Source of the DNA: Desulfobacterales bacterium
GTDB lineage: Bacteria; Desulfobacterota; Desulfobacteria; Desulfobacterales; UBA5852
DNA: 64,000 nucleotides
Reading direction: 5' to 3'
Assembly: GCA_963674755.2 (NCBI GenBank)
Contig: CAXXVS010000003.1
Coordinates: forward strand, 2,624,001 to 2,688,000
Shown one piece after another: positions 21,199 through 39,322 of the stretch (its first letter is position 1; each line of letters opens with the position of its first letter). A program made the position numbers and the translations under genes. Below the pieces are notes generated by a model. That model ran no database searches. It was not told the origin of the DNA and was given only the letters and a program-made list of their open reading frames with translations.

Positions 21199-22953
21199 AT
21201 GCCCAGCGCCGTCAGTTATAAGGATATTTTCGACACCACCAGCAATGGCGTTCTGGTCACCGATGCCAAAGGCTGCCTGACCCATATCAACCCGCAGGCC
21301 GAAAAAATACTGGGATTCAATGCCCGCCGCCATGTCGGCCGCCTCATCTCCGACCTGCTGCCCCTGACCGGCCCCCAGGTCATGACTTGTATCGCCAGCG
21401 GTGAATCCAACCTGGGGCACATGATCAAGGGCAAGGTCGTCGACCTGGTTTTGTTTATTACCCCCATCAAGACGGCCGACGGACACGTGCGCGGCGCCAT
21501 GTGCACCTTTCAGGAGATGGGGCAGTTCGAGCTGTCAGTGCGCAAGATGGAATCCTATCAGCGGCTGAACCGTGAGCTGGCCGCGATCTTCGATGCCTCC
21601 TCGGACGGACTCTGGGTGTGCGACCACGAGGGGCAGGTGATCAACATCAACAAAGCCTCGGCCCAGCTCAACGGGATCAAGGCCGAGGAAATCATCGGCC
21701 AGCACATCGGTGACCTGGTGGCCAGGGGGTTTTTCGACCGGTCGGTCACCCTGGAGGTGATCGAGACCCGGCGCCAGGTCAGCATCATGCAGTTTGTCAA
21801 ACGGACCAACCGCTATCTCCTGGCAACGGGCACCCCGGTCTTCGACGATCAGGGGCAGCTGCACATTATCGTGGTCAACGAACGGGACATGACCCAGTTG
21901 AACGTTATCCGCCAGGAACTCGAGCAGACCCAGATGGTCACGGAAAAAATGCGCGACGAGTTGACCGAGCTGCGCTTGATGGCGCTCAAGGATCAGGCCA
22001 TCATCGCCGAAAGCAAGGAAATGCGCGGCGTCCTGACAGCGGCCCTGAAGCTGGCCCGGCTGGACGCCTCCAACATCCTGCTTTTGGGAGAGTCCGGAAC
22101 GGGCAAGGGCTTGATGGCCCGGTTCATCCACATGAACGGCAGCCGGCGCAAAAAGCCCTTTATCCCCATCAATTGTGCGGCCCTGCCGGAAAGTCTGCTG
22201 GAGGCGGAGCTTTTCGGCTATGAGCGCGGTGCTTTTACCGGAGCCCGTGAGCAGGGCAAAGCCGGATTGTTCGAGCTGGCCCACGAGGGCACGCTCTTCC
22301 TGGACGAAATCGGCGATTTGCCGCTGCCCCTGCAGGCCAAGCTGCTTAAATATCTGGACGATCACGAAATCCTGCGTCTGGGCGGGGTGAAGGCACGCAC
22401 CATCGACTGCTCGATCATCGCCGCCACCAACCGGGATATCGAGGGGCTGGTGAAACGCCGTCAGTTTCGCGAGGATCTCTATTTTCGTCTGAATGCCTTT
22501 ACACTGCGGATACCCCCTCTGCGCGCACGCCCCGAAGACATCTTCGAGCTGATCCGTTTCTATCTGCAACGCTACAGCCGGACCTACCGGACCCGGCGCA
22601 AGCTCATGCCGGAAACTCTTGAGAAACTCCAGAACTATGCCTTTCCGGGCAATGTCCGGGAACTGAAGAACCTCATCAAGCGGGCCGTCGTCATGGGGGA
22701 GAGCGAGATGCTGGACGGCTTCCTCAACCGGAGCCTGGAGGCGGTGCACGCTTCGGGAAAATCCGATCGGTTGGCTCCCTCCGGCCGCACCTCGCTGACC
22801 GACGAGGTGAATGCTTACGAAAAGCAACTTTTCCAGAGCGCCGTCCGCCAGTGCCGAACCACCCGCGAGTTGTCAGCCGCCCTGGGTATCAGCCAACCTA
22901 CGGTGGTGCGGAAAATGAAAAAATACGGGTTGGGCTTTGCGATTGATTCATAA
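21199..22953 (+). CDS. PAS-PAS sigma54-dependent transcriptional activator
   Basis: Two PAS repeats, [32 protein letters not shown], TyrR-like HTH (LGISQPTVVRKMKKYG). Confidence 0.93.
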   Translation: MPSAVSYKDIFDTTSNGVLVTDAKGCLTHINPQAEKILGFNARRHVGRLISDLLPLTGPQVMTCIASGESNLGHMIKGKVVDLVLFITPIKTADGHVRGAMCTFQEMGQFELSVRKMESYQRLNRELAAIFDASSDGLWVCDHEGQVININKASAQLNGIKAEEIIGQHIGDLVARGFFDRSVTLEVIETRRQVSIMQFVKRTNRYLLATGTPVFDDQGQLHIIVVNERDMTQLNVIRQELEQTQMVTEKMRDELTELRLMALKDQAIIAESKEMRGVLTAALKLARLDASNILLLGESGTGKGLMARFIHMNGSRRKKPFIPINCAALPESLLEAELFGYERGAFTGAREQGKAGLFELAHEGTLFLDEIGDLPLPLQAKLLKYLDDHEILRLGGVKARTIDCSIIAATNRDIEGLVKRRQFREDLYFRLNAFTLRIPPLRARPEDIFELIRFYLQRYSRTYRTRRKLMPETLEKLQNYAFPGNVRELKNLIKRAVVMGESEMLDGFLNRSLEAVHASGKSDRLAPSGRTSLTDEVNAYEKQLFQSAVRQCRTTRELSAALGISQPTVVRKMKKYGLGFAIDS

Positions 22954-23085
22954 ATGAATCATGAAAATGGTTCAACTATTTGAATTCTTAACTAAAAATA
23001 TATAATCGTATATGATCTGATTATGAATCTATAAAAAAATAAATAAATTAAATAGGTTATATTTTTTAAGATTCTATTATGAATC
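22945..23085. promoter_or_regulatory. Three candidate enhancer palindromes GATTCA-N4-TGAATC in an AT-rich spacer
   Basis: GATTCA-TAAA-TGAATC (22945), GATCTG-ATTA-TGAATC (23014) and GATTCT-ATTA-TGAATC (23070). Confidence 0.65.
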
Positions 23086-23159
23086 ACCGCTCCGGTCGTC
23101 ACCCTATTCCATGCCGTTGAATCCCTGCTATGTCCTGCCCATGGCCGCTTCGCCAGACC

Positions 23160-23175
23160 TGGCCCGCAAGTTGCA
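23160..23175 (+). promoter_or_regulatory. Sigma54 -24/-12 promoter of the polyamine operon
   Basis: TGGCCC-GCAAG-TTGCA, close to consensus TGGCAC-N5-TTGCW, 54 nt before the gabT start. Confidence 0.85.
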
Positions 23176-23229
23176 GCGCGGTACGGTTTTCAATCACCAC
23201 CCAAACGGTTTGCCATCAGAGGAGGCACA

Positions 23230-24540
23230 ATGGAAGCAACATCCCCAACGGAAGCGTTAGGCCGGACCCGGGCGCAGGTGATGGCCAAAGGATACGCCAG
23301 CGGCACGGCCACCTATGTGGATCATGCCCGGGGCGCGATGCTCTACGACATCGAGGGGCGCGAATACATCGACTTCGCCGGCGGCATCGCCGTGATGAAT
23401 GTGGGCCACTCCCACCCCAAAGTCGTTGCGGCGATCCAGGATCAGGCGGCCAAATTCACCCATACCTGTTTCATGGTGCTGCCCTATGCCCCGGCCGTCG
23501 ATCTGGCCGAGCGTCTCTGCGGGCTGGTCCCGGGGGACTTCGACAAAGCCGCCATGTTTATCAACAGCGGCGCCGAAGCCGTGGAGAACGCCGTCAAGAT
23601 CGCCCGCTACGCGACCAAACGCCAAGGCATCATCTGCTTCGACAACGCCTTTCACGGCCGGACGCTCATGGGCATGAGCCTCACCAGCAAGGTCAAACCC
23701 TACAAATTCGGTTTCGGCCCCTTTGCGCCTGAAATCTATCGCATGCCTTACGCCTACTGCTACCGCTGCCCCTTCGGGTTGCACTATCCGGACTGCCAGA
23801 CCGCCTGTGCGGACCACCTGGAGTCGTTTCTGATCTCCCATGTGGCCCCCGAGAATACGGCCGCCCTCATAGCCGAGCCGATTCAGGGGGAGGGCGGCTT
23901 TATCACCCCGCCGCCGGAATACTTCCCCAAGCTCAAGCGCATCTGCGAGAAGTACGGCATCCTGTTTGTCGCCGACGAGATCCAGACCGGCATCGGGCGC
24001 ACCGGCAAGATGTTCGCCATGGAGCACTGGGGGGTGGCGGCCGATATCACCACGGTGGCCAAGAGCCTGGCGGCGGGAATGCCGCTGAGCGCCGTGGTGG
24101 GCCGCAAGGACATCATGGACAGCGTGCATCTCTCTGGCGTCGGCGGGACATACGGGGGCAATCCCCTGTCCTGTCGGGCGGCCCTGGCCGTGCTGGAGAT
24201 CTTCGAAACCGAAGATCTCCTTGCCAAAGGTCAGGCCCTGGGAGAAAAGCTGCGTCAGCGATTTGATCAGTTTCAGAACCAATTCGAGATCATTGGCGAC
24301 GTGCGGGGCATCGGGCCCATGCTGGCCCTCGAATTGGTGGAAGACCGGGAAACCAAAACCCCCGCCGGGGATGCCGCCAAAAAGCTGGTGGCCTACTGCC
24401 ACGAAAAGGGGCTGATCCTCCTGGCGTGCGGCGGCTACGGCAATGTCATCCGGGTGCTGATGCCTCTGGTGATTACGGACGAACAACTGGAAAAGGGGCT
24501 GGCCATCATGGCCGACGGGCTGGCGGCCCTGACCAACTGA
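23230..24540 (+). CDS. gabT: 4-aminobutyrate (or 5-aminovalerate) aminotransferase
   Basis: IDFAGGIAVMNVGHSHP, NSGAEAVENAVKIAR, FHGRT, LTSKVKPYKFGFGP, EPIQGEGG, ADEIQTG, AKSLAAGMPLS. Confidence 0.92.
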   Translation: MEATSPTEALGRTRAQVMAKGYASGTATYVDHARGAMLYDIEGREYIDFAGGIAVMNVGHSHPKVVAAIQDQAAKFTHTCFMVLPYAPAVDLAERLCGLVPGDFDKAAMFINSGAEAVENAVKIARYATKRQGIICFDNAFHGRTLMGMSLTSKVKPYKFGFGPFAPEIYRMPYAYCYRCPFGLHYPDCQTACADHLESFLISHVAPENTAALIAEPIQGEGGFITPPPEYFPKLKRICEKYGILFVADEIQTGIGRTGKMFAMEHWGVAADITTVAKSLAAGMPLSAVVGRKDIMDSVHLSGVGGTYGGNPLSCRAALAVLEIFETEDLLAKGQALGEKLRQRFDQFQNQFEIIGDVRGIGPMLALELVEDRETKTPAGDAAKKLVAYCHEKGLILLACGGYGNVIRVLMPLVITDEQLEKGLAIMADGLAALTN

Positions 24541-24541
24541 T

Positions 24542-24871
24542 ATGAATCGATTCTCCCTCGGAGAAGCCTGCTCCTGGATCGAGATCAAGCGCCGCCTTGA
24601 TCCGGCCTGGAGCTATGTGGTGATCGAAACAACGGCGGCGACATCCGGTGCCGATATTTTTGACAGCATCGTGACGCTCCTTTCGGAACATGCCGACGGG
24701 ATCCGGTCCCAGGAGATCTGCCGGGAAAGGGAATCCGGTAAATTGTTGCTGCTGGTGCAACTGAATCCGAATAAGGCCGAGGCGGTGAAAGAGGTGCTGC
24801 TCGATCCGCGGCTGCCGCCATCGGTTACGGTTTATTTTTACAACCATTCCCTGCACGGGGAACAATGCTGA
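24542..24871 (+). CDS. Hypothetical protein in the polyamine operon
   Basis: 109 aa, starts 1 nt after the gabT stop; no motif recognised. Confidence 0.65.
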   Translation: MNRFSLGEACSWIEIKRRLDPAWSYVVIETTAATSGADIFDSIVTLLSEHADGIRSQEICRERESGKLLLLVQLNPNKAEAVKEVLLDPRLPPSVTVYFYNHSLHGEQC

Positions 24872-24918
24872 CGGCATCCCTGAGGTGCCTGGAGAAACCC
24901 TAGAAAGGAGTATTTATT

Positions 24919-26268
24919 ATGCCGCGAGACGTGGCCCTGGCCCTATCTGAAACTGAGCGCATGGTGAACCTGATCGTGACCCCGGATACCGAGGTGACTG
25001 AGGAGGATCGGCGCCGGATCGCCAAGGAGACCGTCGAAAATTTTGGCAACCACATCAACAAAGGTTTTCTGGAATACCGGAAGTCCGTCACCGAAACGAG
25101 TGATTTTGCCGTCACCGAGTGGTATGGCCAGGGATCCAAGATGGTCGACGCGCTGGGCCGGGAATTCATTGACATGCTGGGCGGGTTCGGCCTCTATACA
25201 GCCGGCATCCGTCATCCCAAGATCATCGCCGCGGTCAAGGCCCAACTGGACCGCAGCCCCCAGTACAGCCAGGAGATGCTCGATCCCCTGCGGGCCCATC
25301 TGGCCAAAGTGCTGGCCCTGCTGACGCCGGGGGATATCCAGTACGGATTTTTTGCCAACAGCGGCACCGAGGGGGTGGAGGGTGCCATGAAACTGGCCAA
25401 GCTCTACACCCGCAAAAAAGGATTCATCTCGATGCTCAAGGGATTTCACGGCAAGACCCTGGGCGCCCTGTCCCTGATGGGAAAATCCGTCTTTCGCGAA
25501 CCCCTGCTGCCGCTGCTGGAGGGGGTGCGGCACGTCCCCTTCGGGGATGCCGAGGCCGTGGAGACCATGCTGGCTTCGGCCAAGGCCGTGGGCAGCGGAA
25601 TCGCCGCCGTGGTGGCCGAGCCCATCCAGGGGGAAGCCGGCGCCATCGTACCGCCCGACGACTTCTGGCCGCGCTTGCGGGAATTGTGCGACTATTACGG
25701 GGTCTTGCTGATCGCCGATGAAGTCCAGACCGGATTCGGACGCACCGGCAAGATCTTCGGAGTCGACCACTGGGATGTGGCCCCGGATATCATGTGTCTC
25801 GGCAAAGCGCTGGGGGGCGGGGTCGTTCCCATGTCGGCCTTCCTGTCCACCCCCAAGATTTGGTCCTGCCTGGAACCCAATCCGTTTATGCATACCACCA
25901 CCACGGGGGGCAATCCGCTGGCCTGCGCCGCGGCCCTGGCTCAGATCAACGTGCTCCTTGCCGAGGATCTCGCGGGTCAGGCGGCGACCAAAGGTGCCTA
26001 TATTATAGAAAAATTGAACGGATTGAAGCAACAGTATCCGGGCATTCTGGCGGATGCCCATGGCAAGGGCCTGCTGATCGGTATGGAATTTCCTTCGGAC
26101 ACGACCGGCTACGCGGTGGCTTCGGGCCTGTTCAGCCGCGGTGTGTTGACGGCCGGCACCCTGACCAACTCCAAGACGATCCGCATCGAACCGGCGCTCA
26201 ATGTGCCCATGGAGATCGTCGACGAGATGCTCAACCGGCTGGAAGACACGTTCAAGAGCATTTCCTAA
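24919..26268 (+). CDS. patA: Putrescine aminotransferase
   Basis: HINKGFLEYRKSVT, SQEMLDPLRAHLAKVLALLTPGD, NSGTEGVEGAMKLAK, NPFMHTTT, AGTLTNSKTIRIEP; these closely follow PatA/YgjG. Confidence 0.9.
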   Translation: MPRDVALALSETERMVNLIVTPDTEVTEEDRRRIAKETVENFGNHINKGFLEYRKSVTETSDFAVTEWYGQGSKMVDALGREFIDMLGGFGLYTAGIRHPKIIAAVKAQLDRSPQYSQEMLDPLRAHLAKVLALLTPGDIQYGFFANSGTEGVEGAMKLAKLYTRKKGFISMLKGFHGKTLGALSLMGKSVFREPLLPLLEGVRHVPFGDAEAVETMLASAKAVGSGIAAVVAEPIQGEAGAIVPPDDFWPRLRELCDYYGVLLIADEVQTGFGRTGKIFGVDHWDVAPDIMCLGKALGGGVVPMSAFLSTPKIWSCLEPNPFMHTTTTGGNPLACAAALAQINVLLAEDLAGQAATKGAYIIEKLNGLKQQYPGILADAHGKGLLIGMEFPSDTTGYAVASGLFSRGVLTAGTLTNSKTIRIEPALNVPMEIVDEMLNRLEDTFKSIS

Positions 26269-26312
26269 TGGTTTGGTGTACCCCCCGGGGCGGCCCGGGA
26301 AAGGAGGCCCTG

Positions 26313-28040
26313 ATGAAACTGATCAAAGTCGATCTGACAGCGAAAACCATTCAAACCGAGGATCTCCCTTCCGCATACGAAGGACTTGGCGGTCGGGCCC
26401 TGACCTCGAACTACATCAACGACCATGTGCCCGCCGGGTGTGATCCCCTGGGGCCGGAAAACCTGCTGATCTTCGCCCCAGGCTATTTCAGCGGCACGCC
26501 CCTGGTCAACACCAGCCGGCTTTCCGTGGGCGCCAAGAGCCCGCTGACCGGCGGCATCAAGGAAAGCAACGTGGGGGGCACGGCGGCGGCCGCTTTGGCC
26601 AACCTGGGCATTTCGGCCCTCGTGGTGGAGGGTCAGGCCCCCGAAGGGGAGTCCTGGCTGCTCAAGATCGATGCGCAAGGGCAGGTAGCGTTGCTGGACG
26701 GTGCCGACTGCCGCGGCCTGCGCACCTATGCCCTGGCGGAGAAGCTTCTCGCGGCCCACGGCCCCAAGAACAATATCACCTGCATCGGGCCGGCGGGAGA
26801 GGATCTGCTGAGTGCGGCCTCCATCCAGACCACCGACCTGGACGACCATCCCTGCCGGGCGGCCGGCCGCGGCGGCCTGGGGGCGGTCATGGGCTCCAAG
26901 GGACTCAAAGCGCTGATCGTCAGCCGTTCGGGCAAGGCCGCCGATCCTCTGGCCGATCCGGCGGCCTTCAAGGCGGCGGCCAAGGCTTACGCCCAGGCGG
27001 TCAAGGCCGACGAATTCAGCGGCGAGATCCTGCCCGAGCTGGGCTCGGCCTGCCTGGTGGAGGCCATCAACGAGGTGGGGGCCTTTCCGACCCGCAATGC
27101 CCGGGAGGGCCAGTTCGAGGACGCCGACAAGATCAGCGGGGAGGCCATGGCCCGCATCATTCGTGAGCGCGGCGGCAAGACCACCCACAAGGGCTGCGCC
27201 CAGTGCATCATCGACTGCTCCAACGAGTACGTGGATGCGGACGGCAAGTATGTCACTTCTTCGCTGGAGTACGAGACCATCTGGTCCATGGGCGGCATGA
27301 TCGGCAACGGCGACCTGGACGCCATCGCCCGGCTCGATTTCCTCTGCGACGACATCGGGCTGGACACCATCAGTACCGGGGTGGCCATCGCCGTGGCCAT
27401 GGATGCCGGCTACAAATCCTTCGGCGACGCCCAGGCCGCCATCGCCATGGTGGAGGAAGTGGCGCAAGGCACCGCCTTCGGCAAAATCATCGGCAGCGGG
27501 CCGGCGGCTGTGGGCAAGCACTTCAACCATGAGCGGGTGCCGGTCATGAAGGGCCAGAGCATGGCGGCCTACGACCCCCGCGCCATCCAGGGTATGGCGG
27601 TCACCTATGCCACCTCGCCCATGGGGGGCGACCATACGGCCGGCTGGGTGGTGGACCAGAACCTGGAAGCCTTCGGCGGCACCCTCGACCGGTTTTCGGC
27701 CGAAGGGCAGGTGGAGGCCTCCCGCAACACCCAGATTCACATGGCAGCGGTAGATACGGTGGGCATCTGTGATTTTGCCCAGTCCGGCCTGGCCGCCGAG
27801 GGGGGGATGGACAACGTCTACCGGATGGTGGCCGCCAAATCCGGCCAGCCCTTCGGCGAAGACGACTGGCAGGCACTGGGGCTGCGGGTGCTGAAGGCCG
27901 AGCGGGCCTTCAACCGGCGGGCCGGCTTCACGGCGGCCGACGACCACCTGCCGCGCATGTTCTATGAAGAACCCCTGCCGCCCCACAACAAGGTGGTGGT
28001 CATCAGTCCGGAGGAGCTTGAAAATACCTTTGATTTCTAA
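26313..28040 (+). CDS. Aldehyde:ferredoxin oxidoreductase family (W/Mo-pterin), copy 1
   Basis: RBS AAGGAGG; AKSPLTGGIKESNVGG, GRGGLGAVMGSKGLKA, CAQCIIDC, EYET, DDIGLDT, AYDPRA. Confidence 0.93.
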   Translation: MKLIKVDLTAKTIQTEDLPSAYEGLGGRALTSNYINDHVPAGCDPLGPENLLIFAPGYFSGTPLVNTSRLSVGAKSPLTGGIKESNVGGTAAAALANLGISALVVEGQAPEGESWLLKIDAQGQVALLDGADCRGLRTYALAEKLLAAHGPKNNITCIGPAGEDLLSAASIQTTDLDDHPCRAAGRGGLGAVMGSKGLKALIVSRSGKAADPLADPAAFKAAAKAYAQAVKADEFSGEILPELGSACLVEAINEVGAFPTRNAREGQFEDADKISGEAMARIIRERGGKTTHKGCAQCIIDCSNEYVDADGKYVTSSLEYETIWSMGGMIGNGDLDAIARLDFLCDDIGLDTISTGVAIAVAMDAGYKSFGDAQAAIAMVEEVAQGTAFGKIIGSGPAAVGKHFNHERVPVMKGQSMAAYDPRAIQGMAVTYATSPMGGDHTAGWVVDQNLEAFGGTLDRFSAEGQVEASRNTQIHMAAVDTVGICDFAQSGLAAEGGMDNVYRMVAAKSGQPFGEDDWQALGLRVLKAERAFNRRAGFTAADDHLPRMFYEEPLPPHNKVVVISPEELENTFDF

Positions 28041-28051
28041 AGGTGGCATTG

Positions 28052-28291
28052 ATGCAGGTGCAGGTTAAACTTTACGGCACCCTGGGCAAGCAGGTGCCCG
28101 GCTACGACCACCGGCAGGGTTTGGCGGTGGAGGTGGCCGAGGGAGCTAACGTGGCGGATCTCATGGCCCGGATCGGCGTTCCCTTGAAGAAGATCGGGAT
28201 GGTCTCCCTGGACGGTCGTCTGGCCGGCCGGGAAGCCAGCCTGCAAGCCAATATGCTGGTCAAGGTTTTTCATCCGATTTTCGGCGGTTAG
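28052..28291 (+). CDS. MoaD/ThiS sulfur-carrier family protein
   Basis: VQVKLYGTL beta-grasp start and C-terminal GG; lies between two AOR genes. Confidence 0.88.
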   Translation: MQVQVKLYGTLGKQVPGYDHRQGLAVEVAEGANVADLMARIGVPLKKIGMVSLDGRLAGREASLQANMLVKVFHPIFGG

Positions 28292-28306
28292 TAAGGAGAA
28301 GGTGGA

Positions 28307-30067
28307 ATGGACGGCTGTTACGGCCAGGTTTTAAAAATCGATCTCAACACCCGGCAGTGGCGGGTGGAAGAAGTCCCGGAGGATATCCAGCAGACGTATC
28401 TGGGGGGCAAGGGGCTGGCCACTCACCTGCTTCTGGAGAACAATCCGGCCGGGGTCGATCCGCTGGCGCCGGAAAACACCCTCATCTTCGCCACCGGTCC
28501 GGCCACGGGCAGCGCCGTGTGGGGCGGCTGCCGCTACGGGGTGTACACCAAATCCCCCCAGACGGGCTTTTATGCGGAATCCTACTCCGGCGGCAAGGTG
28601 CCCGAGGCCATAGCCGCCACCGGGTACGATGCGGTGCTGATCCAGGGGGCCTGTGCCGCTCCGACGGTCCTGGCGATCTACCCGGACCGGGTGGATTTTC
28701 ACGACGCCGGCGATCTCTGGGGCCAGGATACCTATGCCAGCGAGGATGCCGTTCTGGCGCGCTTCCGGCGCGATGATGCCGGCTACAAGCGTCCGGGGGC
28801 GGTGGTCATCGGCCCGGCGGCCGAAAAGGGGATCCGTTTTGCCCTGATCAAGAACGACCGCTGGCGCAGCGCCGGGCGCACCGGGGTGGGCGCGGTCCTG
28901 GGCGCCAAACGGGTCAAGGGGATTCTCTTCCAGGGCGACCGCCAACGGCCCCTGCACGACGGGGAGGCGGTGCGCGCCTTGGCCAAGAACCTGGTGAAAG
29001 AGGGCAAGGACAACCCGGGGGTCAAGGCCTACAAGGCCATGGGAACCTCCCAGATGGTCAAGATCATGAATGCGGCCAAGGCCTTTCCCACCCGCTACTG
29101 GTCCCGGGGGACCTGCCCGCACTGGGAGGAGATCGGCGCCGACGCCCTGCACACGCGCTGCGAAGTCGAGCCCCACGCCTGCTTGAAGTGCTTCATGGCC
29201 TGCGGTCGGATGAGTCGGGTCAAGGAAGGGCCCCATGCCGGGCTCACGATCGAAGGACCGGAATACGAGACCATATACGCCTTCGGCGGTCTGTGCATGA
29301 TCGATTCCATCGAAGGGATCATCTACCTCAACGACATCTGCGACCGTCTGGGCATGGACACCATCACGGCCGGCAACCTGTGTGCCTTTACCATCGAGGC
29401 GGTACGTCGGGGCAAGGTCAATTTCGCGGTGGATTACGGCGATGTCGACGGCGTGGCCGCCTTGCTGCGGCTGATTGCCGCCCGGGAAGGCCTCGGCGCG
29501 GTGCTGGCCGAGGGACTGCGCCATGCCGCCGCCCGGTGGGACCTCGAAGACATCGCGGTGCATGTCAAGGGCATGGAGCCGGCCGGCTACGATCCGCGCC
29601 CCCTCAAAGGCATGGGGCTGGCCTACGCCACTTCCGACCGAGGGGCCTGCCACCTGCGGACGACGTTTTACAAGCCCGAACTCAGCGGGATGATCGATCC
29701 GGGCCAGGTGGAGGGCAAGGCCGAGCTGTTCATCGACTTCGAGGACCGCTTGACCCTTTTCGACACCCTTATTTTGTGCCGGTTTTACCGGGATCTTTAT
29801 CCCTGGGAGGCCCTCCGGGAGATGCTGAAGGCCCTCACCGGGATCGACGAGGATATTGCCGGCCTGCGCCAAAGGGCGGCGGCCATCGCCACCCTCACAC
29901 GGCGCTTCAACATCCGGGAGGGTCTGACCTCCCAGGACGACCGTCTGCCCCGCCAGTTGCATCGCCGCCTGGAAGATTCGGAGCAGGTGGTCACTGAGGA
30001 AGAGATTCATACCATGGTGCAGGACTACTACCGGTTGCGCGGTTGGGATGCGCAGGGCTCGCCCTAA
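28307..30067 (+). CDS. Aldehyde:ferredoxin oxidoreductase family (W/Mo-pterin), copy 2
   Basis: TKSPQTG, GRTGVGAVLGAKRVK, CLKCFMAC, EGPEYET, DRLGMDT, TSDRGACH, YYRLRGWD. Confidence 0.95.
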   Translation: MDGCYGQVLKIDLNTRQWRVEEVPEDIQQTYLGGKGLATHLLLENNPAGVDPLAPENTLIFATGPATGSAVWGGCRYGVYTKSPQTGFYAESYSGGKVPEAIAATGYDAVLIQGACAAPTVLAIYPDRVDFHDAGDLWGQDTYASEDAVLARFRRDDAGYKRPGAVVIGPAAEKGIRFALIKNDRWRSAGRTGVGAVLGAKRVKGILFQGDRQRPLHDGEAVRALAKNLVKEGKDNPGVKAYKAMGTSQMVKIMNAAKAFPTRYWSRGTCPHWEEIGADALHTRCEVEPHACLKCFMACGRMSRVKEGPHAGLTIEGPEYETIYAFGGLCMIDSIEGIIYLNDICDRLGMDTITAGNLCAFTIEAVRRGKVNFAVDYGDVDGVAALLRLIAAREGLGAVLAEGLRHAAARWDLEDIAVHVKGMEPAGYDPRPLKGMGLAYATSDRGACHLRTTFYKPELSGMIDPGQVEGKAELFIDFEDRLTLFDTLILCRFYRDLYPWEALREMLKALTGIDEDIAGLRQRAAAIATLTRRFNIREGLTSQDDRLPRQLHRRLEDSEQVVTEEEIHTMVQDYYRLRGWDAQGSP

Positions 30068-30139
30068 TTGGCGCTTTGCTCTGCCGCATCCTTTGGCAAA
30101 CGTCCATCAACTTCACTACGACCTGGAATTTAGGGACCT

Positions 30140-31193
<1,054 letters not shown>

Positions 31194-31201
<8 letters not shown>

Positions 31202-32102
31202 TGCGCTTTTATCCTGGTACGGGGAGCTGACGACCCGCGGGCGCCTCCTCAAACGCGGTTCCGCGCTGCTGATGCCGGGCATGCTGTGGCTGATGCTGTT
31301 TCTGGTCCTGCCGGGCTTGGTGCTCGTGGTGGTGAGCTTCGCCACCCGCGGCGCCTACGGTCAGCTGGAATGGACCTTTACGGTGGAAAACTACCAGCGT
31401 CTAGCCGGGTTCTCGCTTTTCGGCTGGACATCAGACTACCTGATCATCCTGTGGCGCTCGGTGGTGGTGGCCCTGGTCACCACCCTGGTTTCGGTAGTGC
31501 TCTCCTATCCGCTGTGTTTCTTCATTGCGGCCCGCTCGGAGCGCAGCCGCTACATGTGGCTGACCCTGGTGATCATTCCCTTCTGGACCAACATGGTCAT
31601 CCGAGCCTACGCTTGGTTTCTGATCCTGGCGCCGGAAATGCCCTTTGCCAAAATCGCCGCCTTTTTCGGATTCATCCCGGACGGCATGCCGCTCTACCCC
31701 AATGCTTTTGCGGTCTACCTCGGCATGGTCTCCATGTTTCTGCCGTTTGTGACCTTACCCCTTTTCGCCAGTGTCGAACGGATCGACTGGGCCCTGGTGG
31801 AGGCCGCCCAGGACCTCTACGCCTCGCCGGTGCGGGTTTTCACCCAGGCCATTTTGCCCCAGACCATGCCCGGGCTTTCCGTGGGCATCATCCTGACTTT
31901 CGTGCCGGCCATGGGGATGTTCGTGGTGCCGGACCTGCTGGGCGGCGCCAAATACATGCTGGTGGGCAACCTTATCCAGCAACAGTTCGGGTCCAGCCGC
32001 GACTGGCCCTTCGGGGCGGCCATCAGCATGGGCCTCATGGTGCTCACCATGATCGGGCTGCACATCTACCGGCGCAAGGGCAAGGAGATCGAATACGTAT
32101 GA
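31194..32102 (+). CDS. potB: Polyamine ABC transporter permease
   Basis: IIPFWTNMVIRAYAW, LVEAAQDL, PDLLGG, GNLIQQQFGSSRDWPFGAA. Confidence 0.88.
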
Positions 32103-32899
32103 GACGCAATCACCTGATCACGGTTACCCTGTCCCTGATGACCATGGCATTTTTGTATCTGCCCTTGATCGGGGTGGCCGTCTTTTCCGTCAACAGTGCC
32201 CGGCGGGGGCTGGTCTGGAAGGGGTTCACCCTGAGTTGGTACACCAAGCTCTTCGAGAACGAGTGGATCTTGGAGGCGGCCTGGAACACCCTGGTGCTGG
32301 CCCTGGTTTCGACGGTCATCGCGACGGTTCTGGGGACGATCCTGGCCATCGGCATGGACCGCTTCCCCTGGAGCAAGCGCACCAACGGCTTTCTCGATAT
32401 CATTCTCCACATCCCCGTGGTCATCCCGGACATCATCTTGGCCGCCGCTCTGGTGGTGGCCTTCGGTCTGCTGCGGGTGGTTTCCTCGATTTTTGAACCG
32501 GGACTGATCAACATGATCATCGGACACATCACCTTCCAACTGGCTTTCGTGGCGCTGGTGGTGCGCAGCCGCCTGGTGGCCATCGGCAGCGAGGTGGAGG
32601 AAGCCGCCCGGGATCTTTTCGCCAGCAACTGGTATCTTCTGCGCAAGGTCATGCTGCCCCTGCTCATGCCCGGCATCATTGCCGGCGGCATGCTGGCCTT
32701 TACGCTTTCGCTGGATGATTTTGTGATCAGCTTTTTTACGGCCGGCCCTGAATCCCAGACCCTGCCGCTCTTCATTTTTGCCGCCGTGCGACGCGGGGTG
32801 ACGCCCCAGATTCATGCCCTGTCTACCCTGGTCATGTTGATTACGGTCGTGCTGGTGGTGGCGACCGAACGATTTACGCGCAGTAAGGAGAAAGAATAA
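32099..32899 (+). CDS. potC: Polyamine ABC transporter permease
   Basis: FLYLPL, WKGFTLSWY, EEAARDL, AFTLSLDDFVISFF, TLPLFIF. Confidence 0.88.
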   Translation: MRRNHLITVTLSLMTMAFLYLPLIGVAVFSVNSARRGLVWKGFTLSWYTKLFENEWILEAAWNTLVLALVSTVIATVLGTILAIGMDRFPWSKRTNGFLDIILHIPVVIPDIILAAALVVAFGLLRVVSSIFEPGLINMIIGHITFQLAFVALVVRSRLVAIGSEVEEAARDLFASNWYLLRKVMLPLLMPGIIAGGMLAFTLSLDDFVISFFTAGPESQTLPLFIFAAVRRGVTPQIHALSTLVMLITVVLVVATERFTRSKEKE

Positions 32900-32916
32900 C
32901 AACGGGCGCACCGGAC

Positions 32917-32968
32917 ATCGCGATCGGGATCGCCATCGAAAATTCGATTCCGATAGCGATTTCGATTT
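32917..32968. repeat. Hexamer-periodic palindrome (ATCGNN)4-(CGATNN)4
   Basis: ATCGCG ATCGGG ATCGCC ATCGAA AATT CGATTC CGATAG CGATTT CGATTT, between potC and potD. Confidence 0.75.
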
Positions 32969-33042
32969 GGATGGGATATTATGCGTTGATTTTTACGAGG
33001 GAGAGGCAATCACAGGCAACCTGATAGGGAAGGAGAAGGAAG

Positions 33043-34092
33043 ATGCGCAAGTTGACGCTGTTCGTGGTGGTTCTGGCATTGTTGGCCGTACCGTTGGCGG
33101 CCGTCGCCGAAGAGCTCAGGATCTTCACCTGGTCGGAGTACATGGACGAGGAGAAAATGCCGGCGGACTTCGAGGCCAAGTACGGCATCAAGGTCCGGCT
33201 CGACATTTACGAAAATAACGAGGAAATGGTGGCCAAGCTCCAGGCCGGCGGCGTGAGCCAGTACGACATCATCGTGCCGTCGGACTACATCATGCCGGTG
33301 CTGATCAATCAGCACCTCATCCAGCCCCTGGACCACTCCAAAATCCCCAATCTGAAAAACCTCAAACCGATTTTCCGCAACACCACCTATGATCCCGGCA
33401 ACAAGTATTCCGTGGCCTACCAGTGGGGCACGGTGGGTCTGATGTATCGCAAGGACAAGGTTTCGGAAGACGCTGTCAAGTCCTGGTCGGTGCTCTTCGA
33501 CCCTGCCAAGCAGCCCGGGCCCTTCTGGCTCATCGATTCGGTGCGCGAGATGATGGGGATTGCGCTGCTTTACGAAGGCTACGATTTCAACAGCACCGTT
33601 CCCAAAGAGTTGAAGGCCGCCGCCGACATGCTGGTGGCCACCAAAAAGACCGCGGACTGCCTGGGCTTCAAGCCCGGTGTGGGCGGCAAGAACGATGTCG
33701 TGGCCGGTACGGCCGTAGCGGCCATCGTCTACAACGGGGATGCCATTCAGTCGGTGACGGAAAACCCGGACGTGCTGGGCTTCACGATTCCCAAAGAGGG
33801 CAGCGAGATCTGGTACGATTCCATGTGCATCCCGGCCAAGGCGCCCAACCCGGATGCGGCCCTCAAGTGGATCAACTGGATCCTGGATCCCAAGGTGGGG
33901 GCGGAGCTCTCCAACTACAACCAGTATGCCACCCCCAATGCCGCGGCCGAGCAGTACATTACGCCCGAAGATCTTCAGAATCCGGGCATCTATCCCACCC
34001 CGGAGGTTATGGAAAAGCTGCACTTCACCAAGGATCTGGGGAAAGAAAATCGTATCATGGATGAAGCCTGGACCCGGGCCAAGTCCCACTGA
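33043..34092 (+). CDS. potD: Polyamine-binding periplasmic protein
   Basis: Signal peptide, FTWSEYM, YDIIVPSDY, YDPGNKYSVAYQWGTVG, IPKEGSEIWYD. Confidence 0.9.
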   Translation: MRKLTLFVVVLALLAVPLAAVAEELRIFTWSEYMDEEKMPADFEAKYGIKVRLDIYENNEEMVAKLQAGGVSQYDIIVPSDYIMPVLINQHLIQPLDHSKIPNLKNLKPIFRNTTYDPGNKYSVAYQWGTVGLMYRKDKVSEDAVKSWSVLFDPAKQPGPFWLIDSVREMMGIALLYEGYDFNSTVPKELKAAADMLVATKKTADCLGFKPGVGGKNDVVAGTAVAAIVYNGDAIQSVTENPDVLGFTIPKEGSEIWYDSMCIPAKAPNPDAALKWINWILDPKVGAELSNYNQYATPNAAAEQYITPEDLQNPGIYPTPEVMEKLHFTKDLGKENRIMDEAWTRAKSH

Positions 34093-34142
34093 GACAACAA
34101 CGGCGCGTCGGTGATCGGCTGACCGGCCGTTGGTAAGCCCTG

Positions 34143-34179
34143 CAAGGCCTGATTCCGTACGCGAATCAGGCCTTGTTTT
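34143..34179 (+). terminator. Strong hairpin between potD and aguA
   Basis: Perfect 13-bp stem CAAGGCCTGATTC / GAATCAGGCCTTG, 7-nt loop, followed by TTTT. Confidence 0.7.
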
Positions 34180-34194
34180 CAGAGGATTGAAGCG

Positions 34195-35310
34195 ATGGCG
34201 CAGACCTTCCCAAAACAAACACCCCGCGGCGACGGGTTCCGCATGCCGGGTGAATTCGAGCCCCATGCCGGCTGCTGGATCCTGTGGCCCGAGCGGAGCG
34301 ACAACTGGCGCTTGGGGGCCAAACCGGCCCAAAATTGCTTTGTGGCGGTGGCCACGGGCATTGCCCGTTTCGAGCCTGTGACCGTAGGGGTTACCCGAGC
34401 CCATTTCGAAGATGCCCGTCACCAGCTTCCCGACCATATCCGGCTCGTGGAGATGACCCATGACGATGCCTGGATGCGCGACGTGGGGCCGACCTTTGTG
34501 GTCAACGACGCCCGGGGATTGCTGCGCGGGATCGACTGGGAGTTCAACGCCTGGGGCGGCCTGGCCGGCGGGCTCTATTTCCCCTGGCACGACGACGATC
34601 TCGTGGCCGGCAAGGTGCTGGAGATCGAGCGGACCGACGGCTACCGGGCGCCCCTGGTCCTGGAAGGCGGTTCGATCCATGTGGACGGGGAGGGGACATT
34701 GCTCACCACCGAGGAGTGTCTTCTCAATCCGAACCGGAATCCTGCGCTCTCAAGAAGCGCAATCGAAGCCCATTTGCGGGACTACCTGAATGTAGAGCGC
34801 ATCATCTGGCTGCCCCGAGGCGTTTATATGGACGAAACCGACGGCCATGTGGACAACCTGTGCTGCCTGGCCCGGCCCGGGGTCGTGCTGCTCACCTGGA
34901 GCGACGACCCCGAGGATCCGGTCTACAAGATCTGCCGGGAGGCCCATGCGATCCTCTCCCGGGAGTGCGACGCCCGGGGGCGGGCCTTCGAAATCCAGCC
35001 TGTCCATCAGCCCGGCCCGCTGTTCATGACCGAAGAAGAAAGCATCGGGCTGTCCTATTCCCGTTCAGCCAAACCGCGGCGCCCGGGGGACCGGCTGGCG
35101 GGCTCCTACATCAATTTCTACATCGCTAACGGCGGGGTGGTGATGCCGCTGTTCGACGATCCCCACGACGCGACAGCCCTGGAAACCGTGCAGGCCTGTT
35201 TTCCAGAGCGAGAGGTGGTGGGGGTGCCGGCCCGGGAGATCCTCCTGGGGGGCGGCAACATCCACTGCATCACCCAACAACAGCCGGCCGTATCAAATTA
35301 TCGAACGTAA
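34195..35310 (+). CDS. aguA: Agmatine deiminase
   Basis: [59 protein letters not shown]. Confidence 0.96.
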
Positions 35311-35361: not shown

Positions 35362-35982
35362 TTATTGCTTTTTCAGTAAAGGCCGTTTCAGCTCAAATAG
35401 TTCTCGTGTATATGAATAATAATCGCCACCCATCTTCCCTACTGCATCAAGGAATTTGGGATTAATCGATCTATTGAGAAAAATTCTATCATCAATATGG
35501 ATGCCGATGACATCAAGCAGCATCAATTTGCCGCCTCTGATTGAATCCGAAATGGAGATCACTTCCTTCAATCGGCATTCATAGCGTACTTTTGAATCTT
35601 TTACGCCAAGGGGAGAAACTGATACGCTGTGCACTTGTTCGACTCCGGCAATCGAAAACTCGCTGGCATCATGGGGATAGTCAGCACAGGTTATATTCAT
35701 TTTATCCACTTGTTCGGAGCTGACGATGTTGACAACACATTCCTTTGTTTCTTGTAGATTAATGAGCGTATCCTTTGCCAAACGATCCATAGGTGTTATA
35801 TGGGTGATACTAAGAACTGGCGGATTACAACTGGCGACCGTGAAAAAAGAGTAGGGAGCGAGGTTCATCACCCCTTTTGAACTCTGCGAACTTATCCAAG
35901 CGATGGGACGTGGACAAACACCTCCGATCAGGAGGTGATAAATTTCCTGTGATGTATCTATTTTTGCAATCTCCAAGAACAA
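35362..35982 (-). CDS. Flavin reductase-like (DIM6/NTAB family) FMN-binding protein, AT-rich
   Basis: PRPIAWISS, NLAPYSFF, KDTLINL, ECVVNIV, DAVGKMGG; probable TTG start after RBS AAGGAGA. Confidence 0.88.
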   Translation of the reverse strand: MFLEIAKIDTSQEIYHLLIGGVCPRPIAWISSQSSKGVMNLAPYSFFTVASCNPPVLSITHITPMDRLAKDTLINLQETKECVVNIVSSEQVDKMNITCADYPHDASEFSIAGVEQVHSVSVSPLGVKDSKVRYECRLKEVISISDSIRGGKLMLLDVIGIHIDDRIFLNRSINPKFLDAVGKMGGDYYSYTRELFELKRPLLKKQ

Positions 35983-36560
35983 GGCTGTTCTCCTTTTAAC
36001 AAATACTATTTTTCTTAAATCAGTGAATAAAAGTAGCAAAATATGCTACCTTAAAGTTCACCTCCTTATCTTCAATAGAACTCGTAAATCACGTGAGAAT
36101 AAGTTAAACAAATATGAAATATTTCTTGATTAGCTAGATCACAACAGATGTTACATAGCCAACAAATAGACTCGTATTGCCTAGGGAAGTATACCCTTTA
36201 TTTAAGTTGTCGGAATTTGAAAGCGGCCCTCGCGGTTTCATTGGCATTGGCAGCTAACAAGGAATCTAATGATACATCTTGATCTATTTGAACAAGCGAC
36301 TGGGCCAGACGAGGTTTAATCCAAGTATAGATAAATTACCAATTCGATTGATTTGTTTGGCGTGACACATAGACATGTTGGCAATGAACATCTAAGAGAT
36401 TATTCCGCCCGAGAGATGTTCGCAAACCGTCAAAGCCCGTAGCATTCAGCTGCATAGTACCTACTTTGAGTTGGATATTCCCGGTTACGGCACTGATCAG
36501 ACCGATGCAGCCCTATCAGTTCGCCCTAAGCCATTCCATTTAGTATTGGTGAAAAGCTCG

Positions 36561-37382
36561 TCAGGATTTTGAGAGGAAATCCATTACGGCAGCAGAAAAT
36601 TTTTCTTCCTGCTCCAGATTGGATAGATGGGCGGCATCCAATTCAACGAATTCGGCACCGGCAATTGCTTCCACTAGAAAACGACCATCCGACGGCGGTG
36701 TCGCCGGGTCGGCGCTGCCCGATATGACAAGGGTTGGTGCCTTGATATGGCCGATACGGTCGCGCAGATCCACCTCGCGGATGGCGAGGCAGCTTGCAGC
36801 ATATCCTTCGGCAGGCGTATCCACAAGCATCCTATGTAGCGCGTCTGCCAGCTCGGGTCTGGCCTTGGCGAATCCAGGTGTCAACCAGACCGACAGCACT
36901 TTGTCAGCGATCGCCGATAGACCGTCCTGGCGGACGATTTGAACACGCGAGGTCCAGTTGTCAGGCGGCCCGATATAAGCCGCCGTGTTGGCCAGGACCA
37001 GTTTGTCAATGCGATCGGCGTGGTCCAAGGCGAGGCACATGCCCGTCAGGCCACCCATCGACAGGCCGCAGAAAGAAAAGCGGTCGATTTGCAGATGATC
37101 CACAAGTGAGATGATGTCGTTCCCCAACTGTGCAAGCGTATAAGGCCCTGAAGGGACCGATGAACGGCCGTGGCCCCGCGTGTCGTAGCAGACGACACGA
37201 TACCGGGCTGTGAGTCGTTTGATCTGGGGCTCCCACATTTTCATATTGGTTCCAAGGGAATTGGATAATACGATCACAGGGCGTGACTCATCGCCATGCA
37301 GTTCGTGGTGCAGACGCACTTCAGGTAACTGTGCAAAAAGTGAAGGCATGGTGGGCAGGTTCCTTTCTGCTTCGGATGTCAT
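36561..37382 (-). CDS. pcaD: 3-oxoadipate enol-lactonase
   Basis: VLSNSLGT, YDTRGHGRS, GLSMGG nucleophile elbow, NTAAYIG, EGYAASC, AAHLSNLEQ. Confidence 0.88.
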   Translation of the reverse strand: MTSEAERNLPTMPSLFAQLPEVRLHHELHGDESRPVIVLSNSLGTNMKMWEPQIKRLTARYRVVCYDTRGHGRSSVPSGPYTLAQLGNDIISLVDHLQIDRFSFCGLSMGGLTGMCLALDHADRIDKLVLANTAAYIGPPDNWTSRVQIVRQDGLSAIADKVLSVWLTPGFAKARPELADALHRMLVDTPAEGYAASCLAIREVDLRDRIGHIKAPTLVISGSADPATPPSDGRFLVEAIAGAEFVELDAAHLSNLEQEEKFSAAVMDFLSKS

Positions 37383-37385
37383 ATG

Positions 37386-37682
37386 TCACAGATAATTTTG
37401 TCCGGCCAGATAGGCTTTGCGCCAGCGCACGATAGTGATACGCTCAAACAAGCCGGCCTTGAAAAAGGGGTCGGCGGCGATAAAAGCTTCGGCTTCTTTG
37501 CGGGTGTCGACATCCAGAATATAGATGCCGCCGCCGGCATCGGCACCGCCGTCTTCGAGCTTGGCGCCGCAGGCGAGCAGTTTGTCCTTGTTTTCCTCCA
37601 GAAAGACGAGATGTTCGGGCCGCACGTCTCGACGCATCTGCCTGTGGTCAGGCTTGTCGAAAGTTTCGATAAGAAAAGGCAT
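37386..37682 (-). CDS. YciI family protein
   Basis: DKPD...RRDVRPEHLVFL, LLACG, ADPFFKAGLF. Confidence 0.85.
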   Translation of the reverse strand: MPFLIETFDKPDHRQMRRDVRPEHLVFLEENKDKLLACGAKLEDGGADAGGGIYILDVDTRKEAEAFIAADPFFKAGLFERITIVRWRKAYLAGQNYL

Positions 37683-37703
37683 CGGTTATTCTCCAAGACG
37701 TCT

Positions 37704-37988
37704 TCAATTGTCGGCGATCGCTGACGGATGTTGGGCCAGCGGAATGACACTGATTTGCATGAACGGGAAAAGCGGCAGCGCGCTGATCAGGTCGTGCAGT
37801 TCATCGTGCGTGCTCACATCAAATACACTGTAATTGGCATACTGACCGGCGACACGCCACAAATGGCGCCATTTTCCCTCACGCTGCAGTCGCTGGGCCA
37901 TTTCCTTCTCCTTGCGTTTGAGTTCTTCGGCGGCATCCTGATCGAGATCGTTTGGAATCTCAACGTTCATATGGACTAGATAAAGCAC
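37704..37988 (-). CDS. catC: Muconolactone delta-isomerase
   Basis: GTG start after AAGGAGG; EKEMAQRLQREGKWRHLWRVAGQYANYSVFDV and LPLFPFMQISVIPLAQHPS match CatC. Confidence 0.93.
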   Translation of the reverse strand: MLYLVHMNVEIPNDLDQDAAEELKRKEKEMAQRLQREGKWRHLWRVAGQYANYSVFDVSTHDELHDLISALPLFPFMQISVIPLAQHPSAIADN

Positions 37989-38050
37989 GGCATCCTCCTT
38001 TTTGTCGGGATGAAAAAGCAGTCGCCGGCAGTGTTGCTGCCGGCGTAGCG

Positions 38051-39322
38051 TTACGCGGACAGCGATTCGACAACGGCTGCAATGCCGTGGCCGCCGCCGC
38101 CGCAAATGGTTTCAAGGCCGTATGTGCCACCGCGCCTTCGCAGCTCGTACAACAGGGTCACCAGCCGCATGGTGCCGGTGGCTGCAATTGGATGACCCAG
38201 GGATATGCCGGAGCCGTTGACGTTCACCTTGGCGTCGCAGTCAGCTGCCGAAAGGCCCATCAGTTTGGCATCGGCCAGCACCTGGGCGGCAAACGCTTCC
38301 TGAATTTCGATCAGGTCTATCCGGTCAATCCCCATGTCGATGCGTTCCAGCGCTTTGGTTACCGAAGCCGGAACGGCCGGATAGGTCAGGGTCGGATCCG
38401 AGGCGGCAACCGCAAAGGAGAGAAGCCTTGCCATGGGCTGAAGGCCGAGCTGACGGGCCTTCTCGGCGGACATCATCAGCACCGCGGCGGCCCCGTCGTT
38501 TTCCGTGGAGGAATTTCCCGCTGTGCAGATGCCGTCGGGATAAACGGTGCGAAGGCGCGCTAGCTTTTCGATGTTCGTGTCGGGCCGTGGCGGTTCATCC
38601 TGATCCACGATCAGGTCCGCTCCTTTTTTCTGGGGAAGGTTCAGCGGGACGATCTCGTCCTTGAATCGGCCCGCAGCGATCGCTGCACAGGCCTTCTGAT
38701 GGCTGCCAAGCGCCCATTGGTCGGCGTCTTGCCGCGAGATGCCCTCCTGGGCAGCGGCGGCTTCGGCCCAGCTCATCATGGAGTTGAGTTCGCCGAACCG
38801 TTCGACGGGCTGCGACATGACCCGGGCGCGCTGGATCCGGTCAAACATGGGGATTCCCCACATGGGAAGAGCTCCGTGGCCCTTGGGCATCAACCCCCAT
38901 TTGGGATCGACCTTTCCCCCCATGCCCCATTTGATCAGTTCTCCGGGAATATAAAATTCGGCGCGACTCATGCTTTCGATGCCGCCGGCCACGATGACGT
39001 CGGCATAGCCGCTCATGATTTTCATCGCGCCGAAGCAGATGGCATCCAGCCCGCTGCAGCATCGCCGGTCCAGCGTGATGCCCGGAATTTCCACGGGCCA
39101 GTCGGCCGTTAGCAGCGCCATGCGGGCCACGTTGACCGACTCGCCGTTCTGGTAGGATTGGCCCACGATGACGTCATCGACGTCGGTAGGGGAAACGCCG
39201 GCGCGGGTGACCACGGCATCGAGGACCCGGGCCCCCAGCTTATAGGCGGGGATATCTTTCAGGCCTCCCAGATAACTTCCGATGGGGGTTCGGGCGGCCG
39301 ATACGATAACGATCTCTTGCAT
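38051..39322 (-). CDS. Thiolase (acetyl-CoA C-acyltransferase)
   Basis: VSAARTPIG, RRCCSG, TAGNSS..NDGAAA, QEAFAAQ, SLGHPIAATG, ICGGGG. Confidence 0.93.
   Translation of the reverse strand: MQEIVIVSAARTPIGSYLGGLKDIPAYKLGARVLDAVVTRAGVSPTDVDDVIVGQSYQNGESVNVARMALLTADWPVEIPGITLDRRCCSGLDAICFGAMKIMSGYADVIVAGGIESMSRAEFYIPGELIKWGMGGKVDPKWGLMPKGHGALPMWGIPMFDRIQRARVMSQPVERFGELNSMMSWAEAAAAQEGISRQDADQWALGSHQKACAAIAAGRFKDEIVPLNLPQKKGADLIVDQDEPPRPDTNIEKLARLRTVYPDGICTAGNSSTENDGAAAVLMMSAEKARQLGLQPMARLLSFAVAASDPTLTYPAVPASVTKALERIDMGIDRIDLIEIQEAFAAQVLADAKLMGLSAADCDAKVNVNGSGISLGHPIAATGTMRLVTLLYELRRRGGTYGLETICGGGGHGIAAVVESLSA

Follow-up and report, generated by a model that had tools for sequence, protein, structure and literature searches.

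Gene content of the locus

The window analysed here is a stretch of 64,000 nucleotides (nt) on contig C3 (C3:2624001-2688000) of a 6.7-Mb, 97% complete genome (G000) of a Desulfobacterales bacterium, a sulfate reducer that encodes dsrA. At 21199-35310, counted like all feature positions within the window, twelve genes lie on the plus strand, starting with that of a PAS-PAS sigma-54 activator and ending with aguA (Table 1). Among them, two genes of the aldehyde:ferredoxin oxidoreductase (AOR) type of the WOR family, AOR1 and AOR2, lie with the transaminase genes patA and gabT. In Escherichia coli, the putrescine transaminase route consists of PatA/YgjG, PatD/YdcW, GabT or PuuE, and GabD or Sad. 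An earlier note on this DNA had suggested that the two AORs replace PatD and GabD, the two dehydrogenases of this route that are linked to nicotinamide adenine dinucleotide (NAD), in a co-oriented gabT-hypothetical-patA-AOR1-moaD-AOR2-potABCD-aguA cluster. All these genes were found on the plus strand where the note had placed them. We propose, with a probability of roughly 0.7, that AOR1 would take the PatD step and AOR2 the GabD step in a sigma-54-type operon for polyamine import and breakdown. Below, L-numbers denote compared loci and G-numbers genomes.

Table 1. Features of the gene cluster, with positions in the window.
Feature	Position	Strand	Basis or remark
Sigma-54 enhancer-binding activator (PAS-PAS-AAA+-HTH)	21199..22953	+	Pfam; best NCBIfam match PrdR, below cut-off
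Palindrome GATTC-N6-GAATC, putative activator site 1	22945..22960	.	Overlaps activator stop codon
Palindrome GATTC-N6-GAATC, putative activator site 2	23070..23085	.	Perfect copy
Sigma-54 -24/-12 promoter	23160..23175	+	One mismatch to consensus
gabT, 4-aminobutyrate transaminase	23230..24540	+	TIGR00700 551 vs cut-off 506.65; below NF005376 cut-off
Conserved hypothetical gene, 109 amino acids (aa)	24542..24871	+	After gabT in close relatives
patA, putrescine/cadaverine aminotransferase	24919..26268	+	Passes NF008570 (654 vs 612)
AOR1, single-subunit WOR-family, Asp after fourth Fe-S cysteine	26313..28040	+	PF02730+PF01314
MoaD/ThiS-like sulfur carrier, Gly-Gly end (WorX type)	28043..28291	+	ThiS E 2.7e-4
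AOR2, single-subunit WOR-family, Arg481 and Arg492	28307..30067	+	PF02730+PF01314
Pot-type ABC importer, ATPase	30140-31201	+	Pot-like
Pot-type ABC importer, permeases	31194-32102, 32099-32899	+	Pot-like
Pot-type ABC importer, binding protein	33043-34092	+	Pot-like
aguA, agmatine deiminase	34195..35310	+	TIGR03380 566.6 vs 381.8; NF010070 also over cut-off

GabT has E. coli GabT as its top PDB match and likely also takes 5-aminovalerate. PatA matches the E. coli PatA structure 4uox (E 4.7e-143) and has the pyridoxal phosphate lysine motif, with a score under the TIGR03372 cut-off (506 vs 658.65); the patA loci nearest to it come from Desulfobacteraceae and Desulfobacterales records. AOR1 and AOR2 are 28% identical, each with an AFOR_N and an AFOR_C domain, and both keep the four 4Fe-4S cysteines, the pterin-binding motifs and the second-shell Thr, Glu, Tyr and His. 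Neither a WorS polyferredoxin nor a WorN flavin subunit is encoded beside them in the operon, as expected of Class I WORs. The MoaD/ThiS-like gene directly follows AOR1 in most loci and travels with the AOR1 clade. The 109-aa protein has 39 homologues, none with a Pfam domain, and gave no match in Atlas or PDB searches; ACT_6, found in 4 of 18 family members (best E 0.032), is a faint hint only. The ABC genes, which the earlier note had called potABCD, are Pot-like: Pot families are the best matches of the permeases and the binding protein, and the PDB matches of the latter are nearly all polyamine binders, but no Pot model cut-off is reached. None of the 13 PF00171 aldehyde dehydrogenase matches of the genome lies in the window.

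Contigs from public runs (X4 and X6) span, piecewise, the patA-AOR1, AOR1-moaD-AOR2 and AOR2-potA junctions. RNA run X1 contained 0.06 of the words and yielded only pieces of 151-262 nt at depth 2-3.7, which speaks neither for nor against expression.

Exchange of AOR and dehydrogenase genes in related loci

A PatA search gave 227 confirmed loci, of which the best 80 (72-91% identical) were compared. After patA, 27 of these loci have a member of the AOR1 clade, 31 an AOR that forms an in-frame fusion with PatA, and 2 another AOR. The next gene encodes a PatD-type dehydrogenase in 10 loci and something else in 10, three of which have an AOR (L023, L024) or a PatD-type gene (L057) 1-1.7 kb onward. 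Among 30 cases of a gene after gabT, 13 were AOR2-clade members, 4 dehydrogenases and 13 another gene or a contig edge. The survey of patA, gabT and AOR synteny that the earlier note had recommended is thus in its favour. The aminobutyraldehyde dehydrogenase model NF010000 is passed by each of the four dehydrogenases tested that directly follow patA, and by the one in L057. Of the four that follow gabT, one reaches the TIGR01780 cut-off, and the best match of the other three, below cut-off, is the succinate-semialdehyde dehydrogenase (SSADH) model NF006915. All 120 listed clusters of the PatA-AOR fusion, out of 167, have the architecture PF00202-PF02730-PF01314. Cultured carriers in the related loci are Desulfopila aestuarii, Desulforhopalus singaporensis and Desulfacinum infernum, and a metagenome scan added 11 loci of the fused clade, with no wider taxa.

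In these metagenome loci (L138-L148, e.g. L145:7945-8490), a gene for a 181-187-aa polyferredoxin comes next in 10 of 11, so that the fused clade is probably a two-subunit enzyme. The AOR1-like fusions P0121-P0123 were considered as a second PatA fusion and rejected: their aminotransferase, 37% identical to GabT, is not PatA, and the residue after the fourth Fe-S cysteine, discussed below, is Leu. Partners in the further AOR fusions (P0121-P0130) comprise non-PatA class III aminotransferases, a pyridoxal-phosphate-dependent decarboxylase, AMP-binding enzymes and a 3-hydroxyacyl-CoA dehydrogenase-like domain, and each may name a further WOR substrate.

Charged residues near the active site

A quick IQ-TREE analysis of 63 of 82 AOR sequences (10 of 29 fused ones kept), with long-branch warnings for the deeper joins, gave three distant, well-supported groups: AOR1 (96), fused (100) and AOR2 (100). 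The AOR1 group and its control sister nest together (100), free-standing members in Desulfacinum belong to the fused group, and all three groups retain the four Fe-S cysteines and the second-shell Thr, Glu, Tyr and His. Directly after the fourth cysteine, 25/25 AOR1-clade and 32/32 fused-clade sequences have Asp, and 18/18 AOR2-clade sequences have Arg or Lys; all 18 also have an Arg ten residues before that cysteine. Among loci picked by AOR similarity, Asp was found in 18/18 AOR1 sequences of at least 70% identity; the double Arg of AOR2 recurred out of sample in 6/6 and 29/29 sequences, and Asp is present in 119 of the 120 listed fusions. In the sister group of AOR1 (55-63% identity, two members near a class III aminotransferase), Asp occurs in 0/15 sequences and a hydrophobic residue in 15/15. 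With Asp in both the AOR1 and fused clades and a hydrophobic residue in this sister group, Asp was probably gained twice, each time in a PatA partner.

PMC12096430 and bioRxiv 2023.01.23.525143 describe the roles of WOR cofactor and second-shell residues. In Aromatoleum AOR, Phe511 touches the bound benzoate and Val510 is listed among the pterin contacts (bioRxiv 2023.01.23.525143). Val510 is the equivalent of the diagnostic position of AOR1 and AOR2, which is at the active site because its neighbour contacts the substrate; a role for the side chain itself is a prediction.

A likeness to the double Arg of AOR2 is found in Pyrococcus furiosus FOR (PDB 1b25, 1b4n), where Arg481 and Cys491-Arg492 align in the same register and with the same numbering as Arg481 and Arg492 of AOR2; generic AORs have Leu, Ile or Val at the Arg492 equivalent. 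Glutaric semialdehyde has been proposed as a substrate of FOR, with glutarate in the crystal (PMC12096430), and its physiological role is itself described as unproven (PMC12318220). With 269.7 bits against FOR and 271-341 bits against generic AORs, however, AOR2 is no nearer to the former, and since 1b25 ranks fifth of five solved relatives, AOR2 may be FOR-like in its working at most and is not classed as FOR. For the amino-aldehyde step there is no FOR-like precedent.

Presence and absence across the order

The order was sampled with 200 genomes, many of them fragmented, so a miss is to be read as 'not found with this query'. All 20 genomes with a strong PatA have GabT and a PatA-type AOR (fused in 16, or AOR1 at ≥ 70%), with AOR2 in 16, a PatD-type match in 1 and GabD in 1. 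Among genomes without any PatA-like match, the amino-type AOR clades (AOR1 or fused) were found in only 3 of 170. AOR2 occurs in 47 of 71 genomes with gabT, and an AOR2-clade gene lies within 10 kb of gabT for 30 of 92 matches (30 weaker matches left out); for a widespread AOR clade used as control, the figure was 0 of 110. The near absence of PatD from PatA genomes, the same-slot exchange with PatD-type and SSADH-type dehydrogenases, the PatA-AOR fusion family and the opposite charges near the active site (Asp in AOR1, Arg in AOR2) together support the replacement of PatD and GabD by AORs. As separate cases, a GabD over cut-off lies between two AOR2-clade genes in G168:C43:4003-13579 and adjoins AOR2 in G029.

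Other candidate genes in the genome

Genome-wide, 11 AFOR_C matches were found. With these and a PatD-type dehydrogenase elsewhere, the statement in the earlier note of exactly two AORs and no aldehyde dehydrogenase holds at the locus but not for the genome. Its argument by number, two transaminases and two AORs, points the same way as the other evidence but is weak alone, because of the 11 AOR matches. The note had also named patD and gabD elsewhere as possible carriers of the flux: the PatD-type gene is indeed present, but genome-wide nothing reached the TIGR01780 cut-off for GabD (best 414.9 vs 646.35); Sad-type models, run on selected proteins only, all scored far below cut-off. The enzyme needed between AguA and PatA, AguB, is encoded outside the cluster at C1:1089306 (over cut-off), so that both AguA and AguB of the agmatine deiminase route are present, with aguB unlinked. 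A tupABC-like operon lies at C2:2366-2369.5 kb.

In light of this inventory, AOR1 and AOR2 could be broad-range aldehyde scavengers or back-ups, with the main flux through the PatD-type enzyme elsewhere and succinate semialdehyde reduced to 4-hydroxybutyrate. The PatD-type gene near a second Pot-type importer, an iron-containing alcohol dehydrogenase gene after a 91% identical gabT paralogue and an HpaB/AbfD-family gene in the genome would fit, as would the characterised Class I WORs, which are mostly detoxifiers as PMC13328260 presents them. We consider this explanation improbable: a PatD-type match is absent from 19 of the 20 PatA genomes, the alcohol dehydrogenase is not assignable as a 4-hydroxybutyrate dehydrogenase, and the fusion and the invariant charged residues are left unexplained.

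Weighing the assignment of AOR1 and AOR2

Several observations weigh against the assignment of AOR1 to the PatD step and AOR2 to the GabD step. The 80 loci are not independent: a FastTree of 81 PatA rows has 5 changes across the four partner states, with the fusion accounting for 1 change and AOR versus dehydrogenase for 2. PatD-type genes co-occur in one locus with PatA-AORs in L054 and L073, and a strong patA is directly beside only 3 of 21 close AOR1 relatives. The PatD-type dehydrogenase of the genome itself, at C3:2270222, passes NF010000 (639.8 vs 615). Neither AOR2 nor GabD was found in 4 of the 20 PatA genomes, AOR2 is present in 32 of 129 genomes without a GabT match, and exclusion of GabD by AOR2 was not seen among the 200 genomes, both occurring in 10 of the 71 with gabT. 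Of the tungstate uptake proteins, TupA (387.4 vs 400) and TupB (289.6 vs 320) are just below cut-off. Arg481 and Arg492 of FOR reportedly hold glutarate, a contact that a literature search did not bring up. A ten-sequence profile applied to 148 WOR representatives shows that the diagnostic position varies, with Lys or Arg in 47 and Asp or Glu in 17, and a double Arg/Lys occurs in only 4. Given this background, a single Arg is weak evidence, and the double Arg and the twice-gained Asp are moderate evidence.

Gene order also bears on how the two steps are divided. The locus L098, of the same genus, reads gabT-hypothetical-AOR1-moaD-pot-aguA without patA or AOR2, and L107 has the order AOR2-gabT-AOR1, so AOR1 can come after gabT; these two orders belong to the counter-evidence as well. 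AOR1 might thus oxidise both aldehydes, as its position downstream of gabT without AOR2 in L098 and L102 could suggest, or hydroxylate 1-pyrroline to the lactam 2-pyrrolidone, given that 4-aminobutanal cyclises spontaneously. An Asp beside the substrate-contacting Phe position nevertheless suits a carboxylate badly, elsewhere in the genome of L098 a GabD gene stands between two AOR2 paralogues, and domain and family scans of the operon genes recognised no lactam hydrolase; we regard such a division of labour as quite improbable.

The same chemistry might also serve other amines. AOR1 would then act on aldehydes from spermidine, agmatine or N-carbamoylputrescine (3-aminopropanal, guanidinobutanal, aminopropyl-aminobutanal) and AOR2 on anionic aldehydes such as sulfo-aldehydes, with putrescine a minor substrate. 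This would account for an operon without aguB, for AOR1 relatives adjoining other class III aminotransferases and Pot importers (L100, L102, L108), for AOR1 together with a PatD-type gene in L054, and for AOR2 relatives that follow an iron-containing alcohol dehydrogenase gene whose best match, below cut-off, is sulfoacetaldehyde reductase in 10 of 29 loci. It is unlikely, as aguB is present in the genome and stands beside aguA in many related loci, and the partners exchanged in the two slots are aminobutyraldehyde and succinate-semialdehyde dehydrogenases.

Three loci deserve mention in their own right. At L102:8524 and L108:1299, a class III aminotransferase resembling glutamate-semialdehyde aminomutase adjoins AOR1 and Pot genes and is a candidate for another polyamine transaminase. 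L105:5326-16806 holds AOR1, Pot genes and aguA near a putrescine carbamoyltransferase-like gene (below cut-off), a carbamate-kinase-like gene and a 54% PatA relative, possibly an ATP-yielding agmatine route joined to the AOR route.

Promoter and regulatory sites

The sigma-54 site was missed by a strict pattern and found by one allowing one mismatch to the sigma-54 consensus. It lies in the 276-nt gap before gabT (39.5% G+C), at a spacing to gabT that is identical in L018, L098 and L069, and all intergenic gaps downstream of gabT are at most 143 nt. The sigma-54 promoter of the earlier note therefore exists, but the activator gene is upstream of it, so the operon begins at 23230. Orthologues of the activator are found upstream of gabT in relatives too, and it is likely a local polyamine-responsive regulator.

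In addition to the two palindromes of Table 1, a degenerate third copy was seen by eye at 23014-23029. Perfect GATTC-N6-GAATC occurs 3 times in the genome, 2 of them at or in the gap upstream of gabT, and gabT is the sole one of 5462 called genes with two such palindromes upstream (one mismatch allowed). The palindrome was found upstream of 11 of 114 related gabT or patA genes, in at least two copies in 6. The palindromes are putative binding sites of the local activator. A scan for sigma-70 promoters and terminators remained at chance level (3 vs 4.5 and 18 vs 12.4, respectively).

Proposed pathway and comparison with known systems

In the proposed pathway, the ABC importer would take up agmatine, putrescine or cadaverine. 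AguA, by family assignment, would convert agmatine to N-carbamoylputrescine and the unlinked AguB would convert this to putrescine, if flux takes this course. PatA would yield 4-aminobutanal from putrescine or 5-aminopentanal from cadaverine, and AOR1 would oxidise the amino-aldehyde to 4-aminobutyrate (GABA) or 5-aminovalerate, with Asp487 predicted to pair with the substrate amine. After transamination by GabT to succinate or glutarate semialdehyde, AOR2 would form the diacid, its Arg481 and Arg492 holding the distal carboxylate. With no small Fe-S subunit in the operon for either enzyme, AOR1 and AOR2 are presumably of the Class I type and would pass electrons to free ferredoxin, an acceptor predicted from characterised members of the family. 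By family, the metal would probably be tungsten, consistent with the tupABC-like operon.

The locus resembles the E. coli route in its PatA and GabT orthologues, Pot-type import and sigma-54 control, and differs from it in that both NAD(P)-linked steps are held by WOR-family genes and that agmatine enters via AguA. Desulfovibrio-type relatives have PatD-type and SSADH-type genes in those slots, as in the E. coli route. A substrate-specific WOR in place of an NAD-linked enzyme is known from GAPOR/GOR, which replaces GAPDH and reduces ferredoxin (PMC13328260), but in another pathway and clade; the GAPOR model scores 30-38 bits here. The Class I WORs with WorX (PfAOR, BmWOR, CsWOR87) share with AOR1 and AOR2 a single large subunit, four Fe-S cysteines and an adjacent ThiS-like gene. 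They differ as broad-range detoxifiers with, where structures were aligned, a hydrophobic residue after the fourth cysteine, whereas AOR1 and AOR2 have a charged residue there and lie in a dedicated catabolic operon.

No description of a WOR in polyamine catabolism was found in the literature searched, which left out most subscription papers. The main text of a 2026 WOR classification (PMC13328260) never mentions putrescine, aminotransferase, polyamine or semialdehyde, and three of its supplements contain no putrescine, aminotransferase or transaminase; its separate large neighbourhood table may list such neighbours. Anaerobic fermentation of putrescine is confirmed for Anaerovorax in PMC11362086, in a passage that does not name the enzymes. 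The locus is real and conserved, and appears to be an undescribed variant of the textbook pathway.

Additional observations in the genome

At C3:2326431-2333231 (L013), a remnant of AOR2 with an internal deletion precedes a second copy of AOR1 (97% DNA identity). The two are flanked by two Mop-type molybdenum aldehyde oxidoreductase genes, after which comes a 4.26-kb block 97.9% identical to C3:2225876-2230135 (Mop-type gene, DsrC-like, cysteine desulfurase-like). This duplication is either a recent recombination or an assembly artefact. Two further gabT genes are found at C1:667870-669180 (L117) and C3:2309944-2311254 (L116). After one of them, the 91% identical paralogue, come a relative of the 109-aa gene and the iron-containing alcohol dehydrogenase gene; the other lies behind a related activator and is followed by glutamate dehydrogenase and P-II. 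A glutamine-synthetase-like gene, an aldehyde dehydrogenase and a polyamine-type binding protein at C2:1683-1690 kb (L007) possibly form a glutamylation route for amines.

Downstream of the cluster, 35362-50000 of the window has a G+C content of 53.7% vs about 60% and encodes a 3-oxoadipate enol-lactonase, a cyclase, a sodium:solute symporter and dehydrogenases. Directly after aguA, the same-genus locus L098 has lysS, which in the window lies 40 kb further downstream.

Significance

Potentials of -520 mV for aldehyde/acid, about -500 mV for ferredoxin and about -280 mV for NAD are given in PMC12318220. By our own arithmetic, reduction of ferredoxin rather than NAD would keep about 42 kJ per mole of aldehyde, twice per diamine, a saving that matters for a sulfate reducer. 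The locus also points to polyamine degradation by sulfate reducers.

Of 92 WOR clades, only 5 include a member whose physiological role is defined (PMC13328260). If the roles proposed here hold, two untested enzyme groups, AOR1 and AOR2, would gain a defined job, and the locus proposes substrates for three more WOR groups with single-residue predictions. In a wider reading, to which we give about even odds, three uncharacterised WOR clades make up a polyamine pathway of anaerobes that depends on tungsten and not on NAD. The amino-aldehyde:ferredoxin oxidoreductase would then have two convergent origins, each through acquisition of one Asp; in one of them the enzyme is fused to PatA, so that the aldehyde is channelled before cyclisation. 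The widespread double-Arg clade would be the general acid-semialdehyde:ferredoxin oxidoreductase of the Desulfobacterota. If this is true, the substrate class of a WOR could be read, as a charge code, from the residue that follows the fourth Fe-S cysteine.

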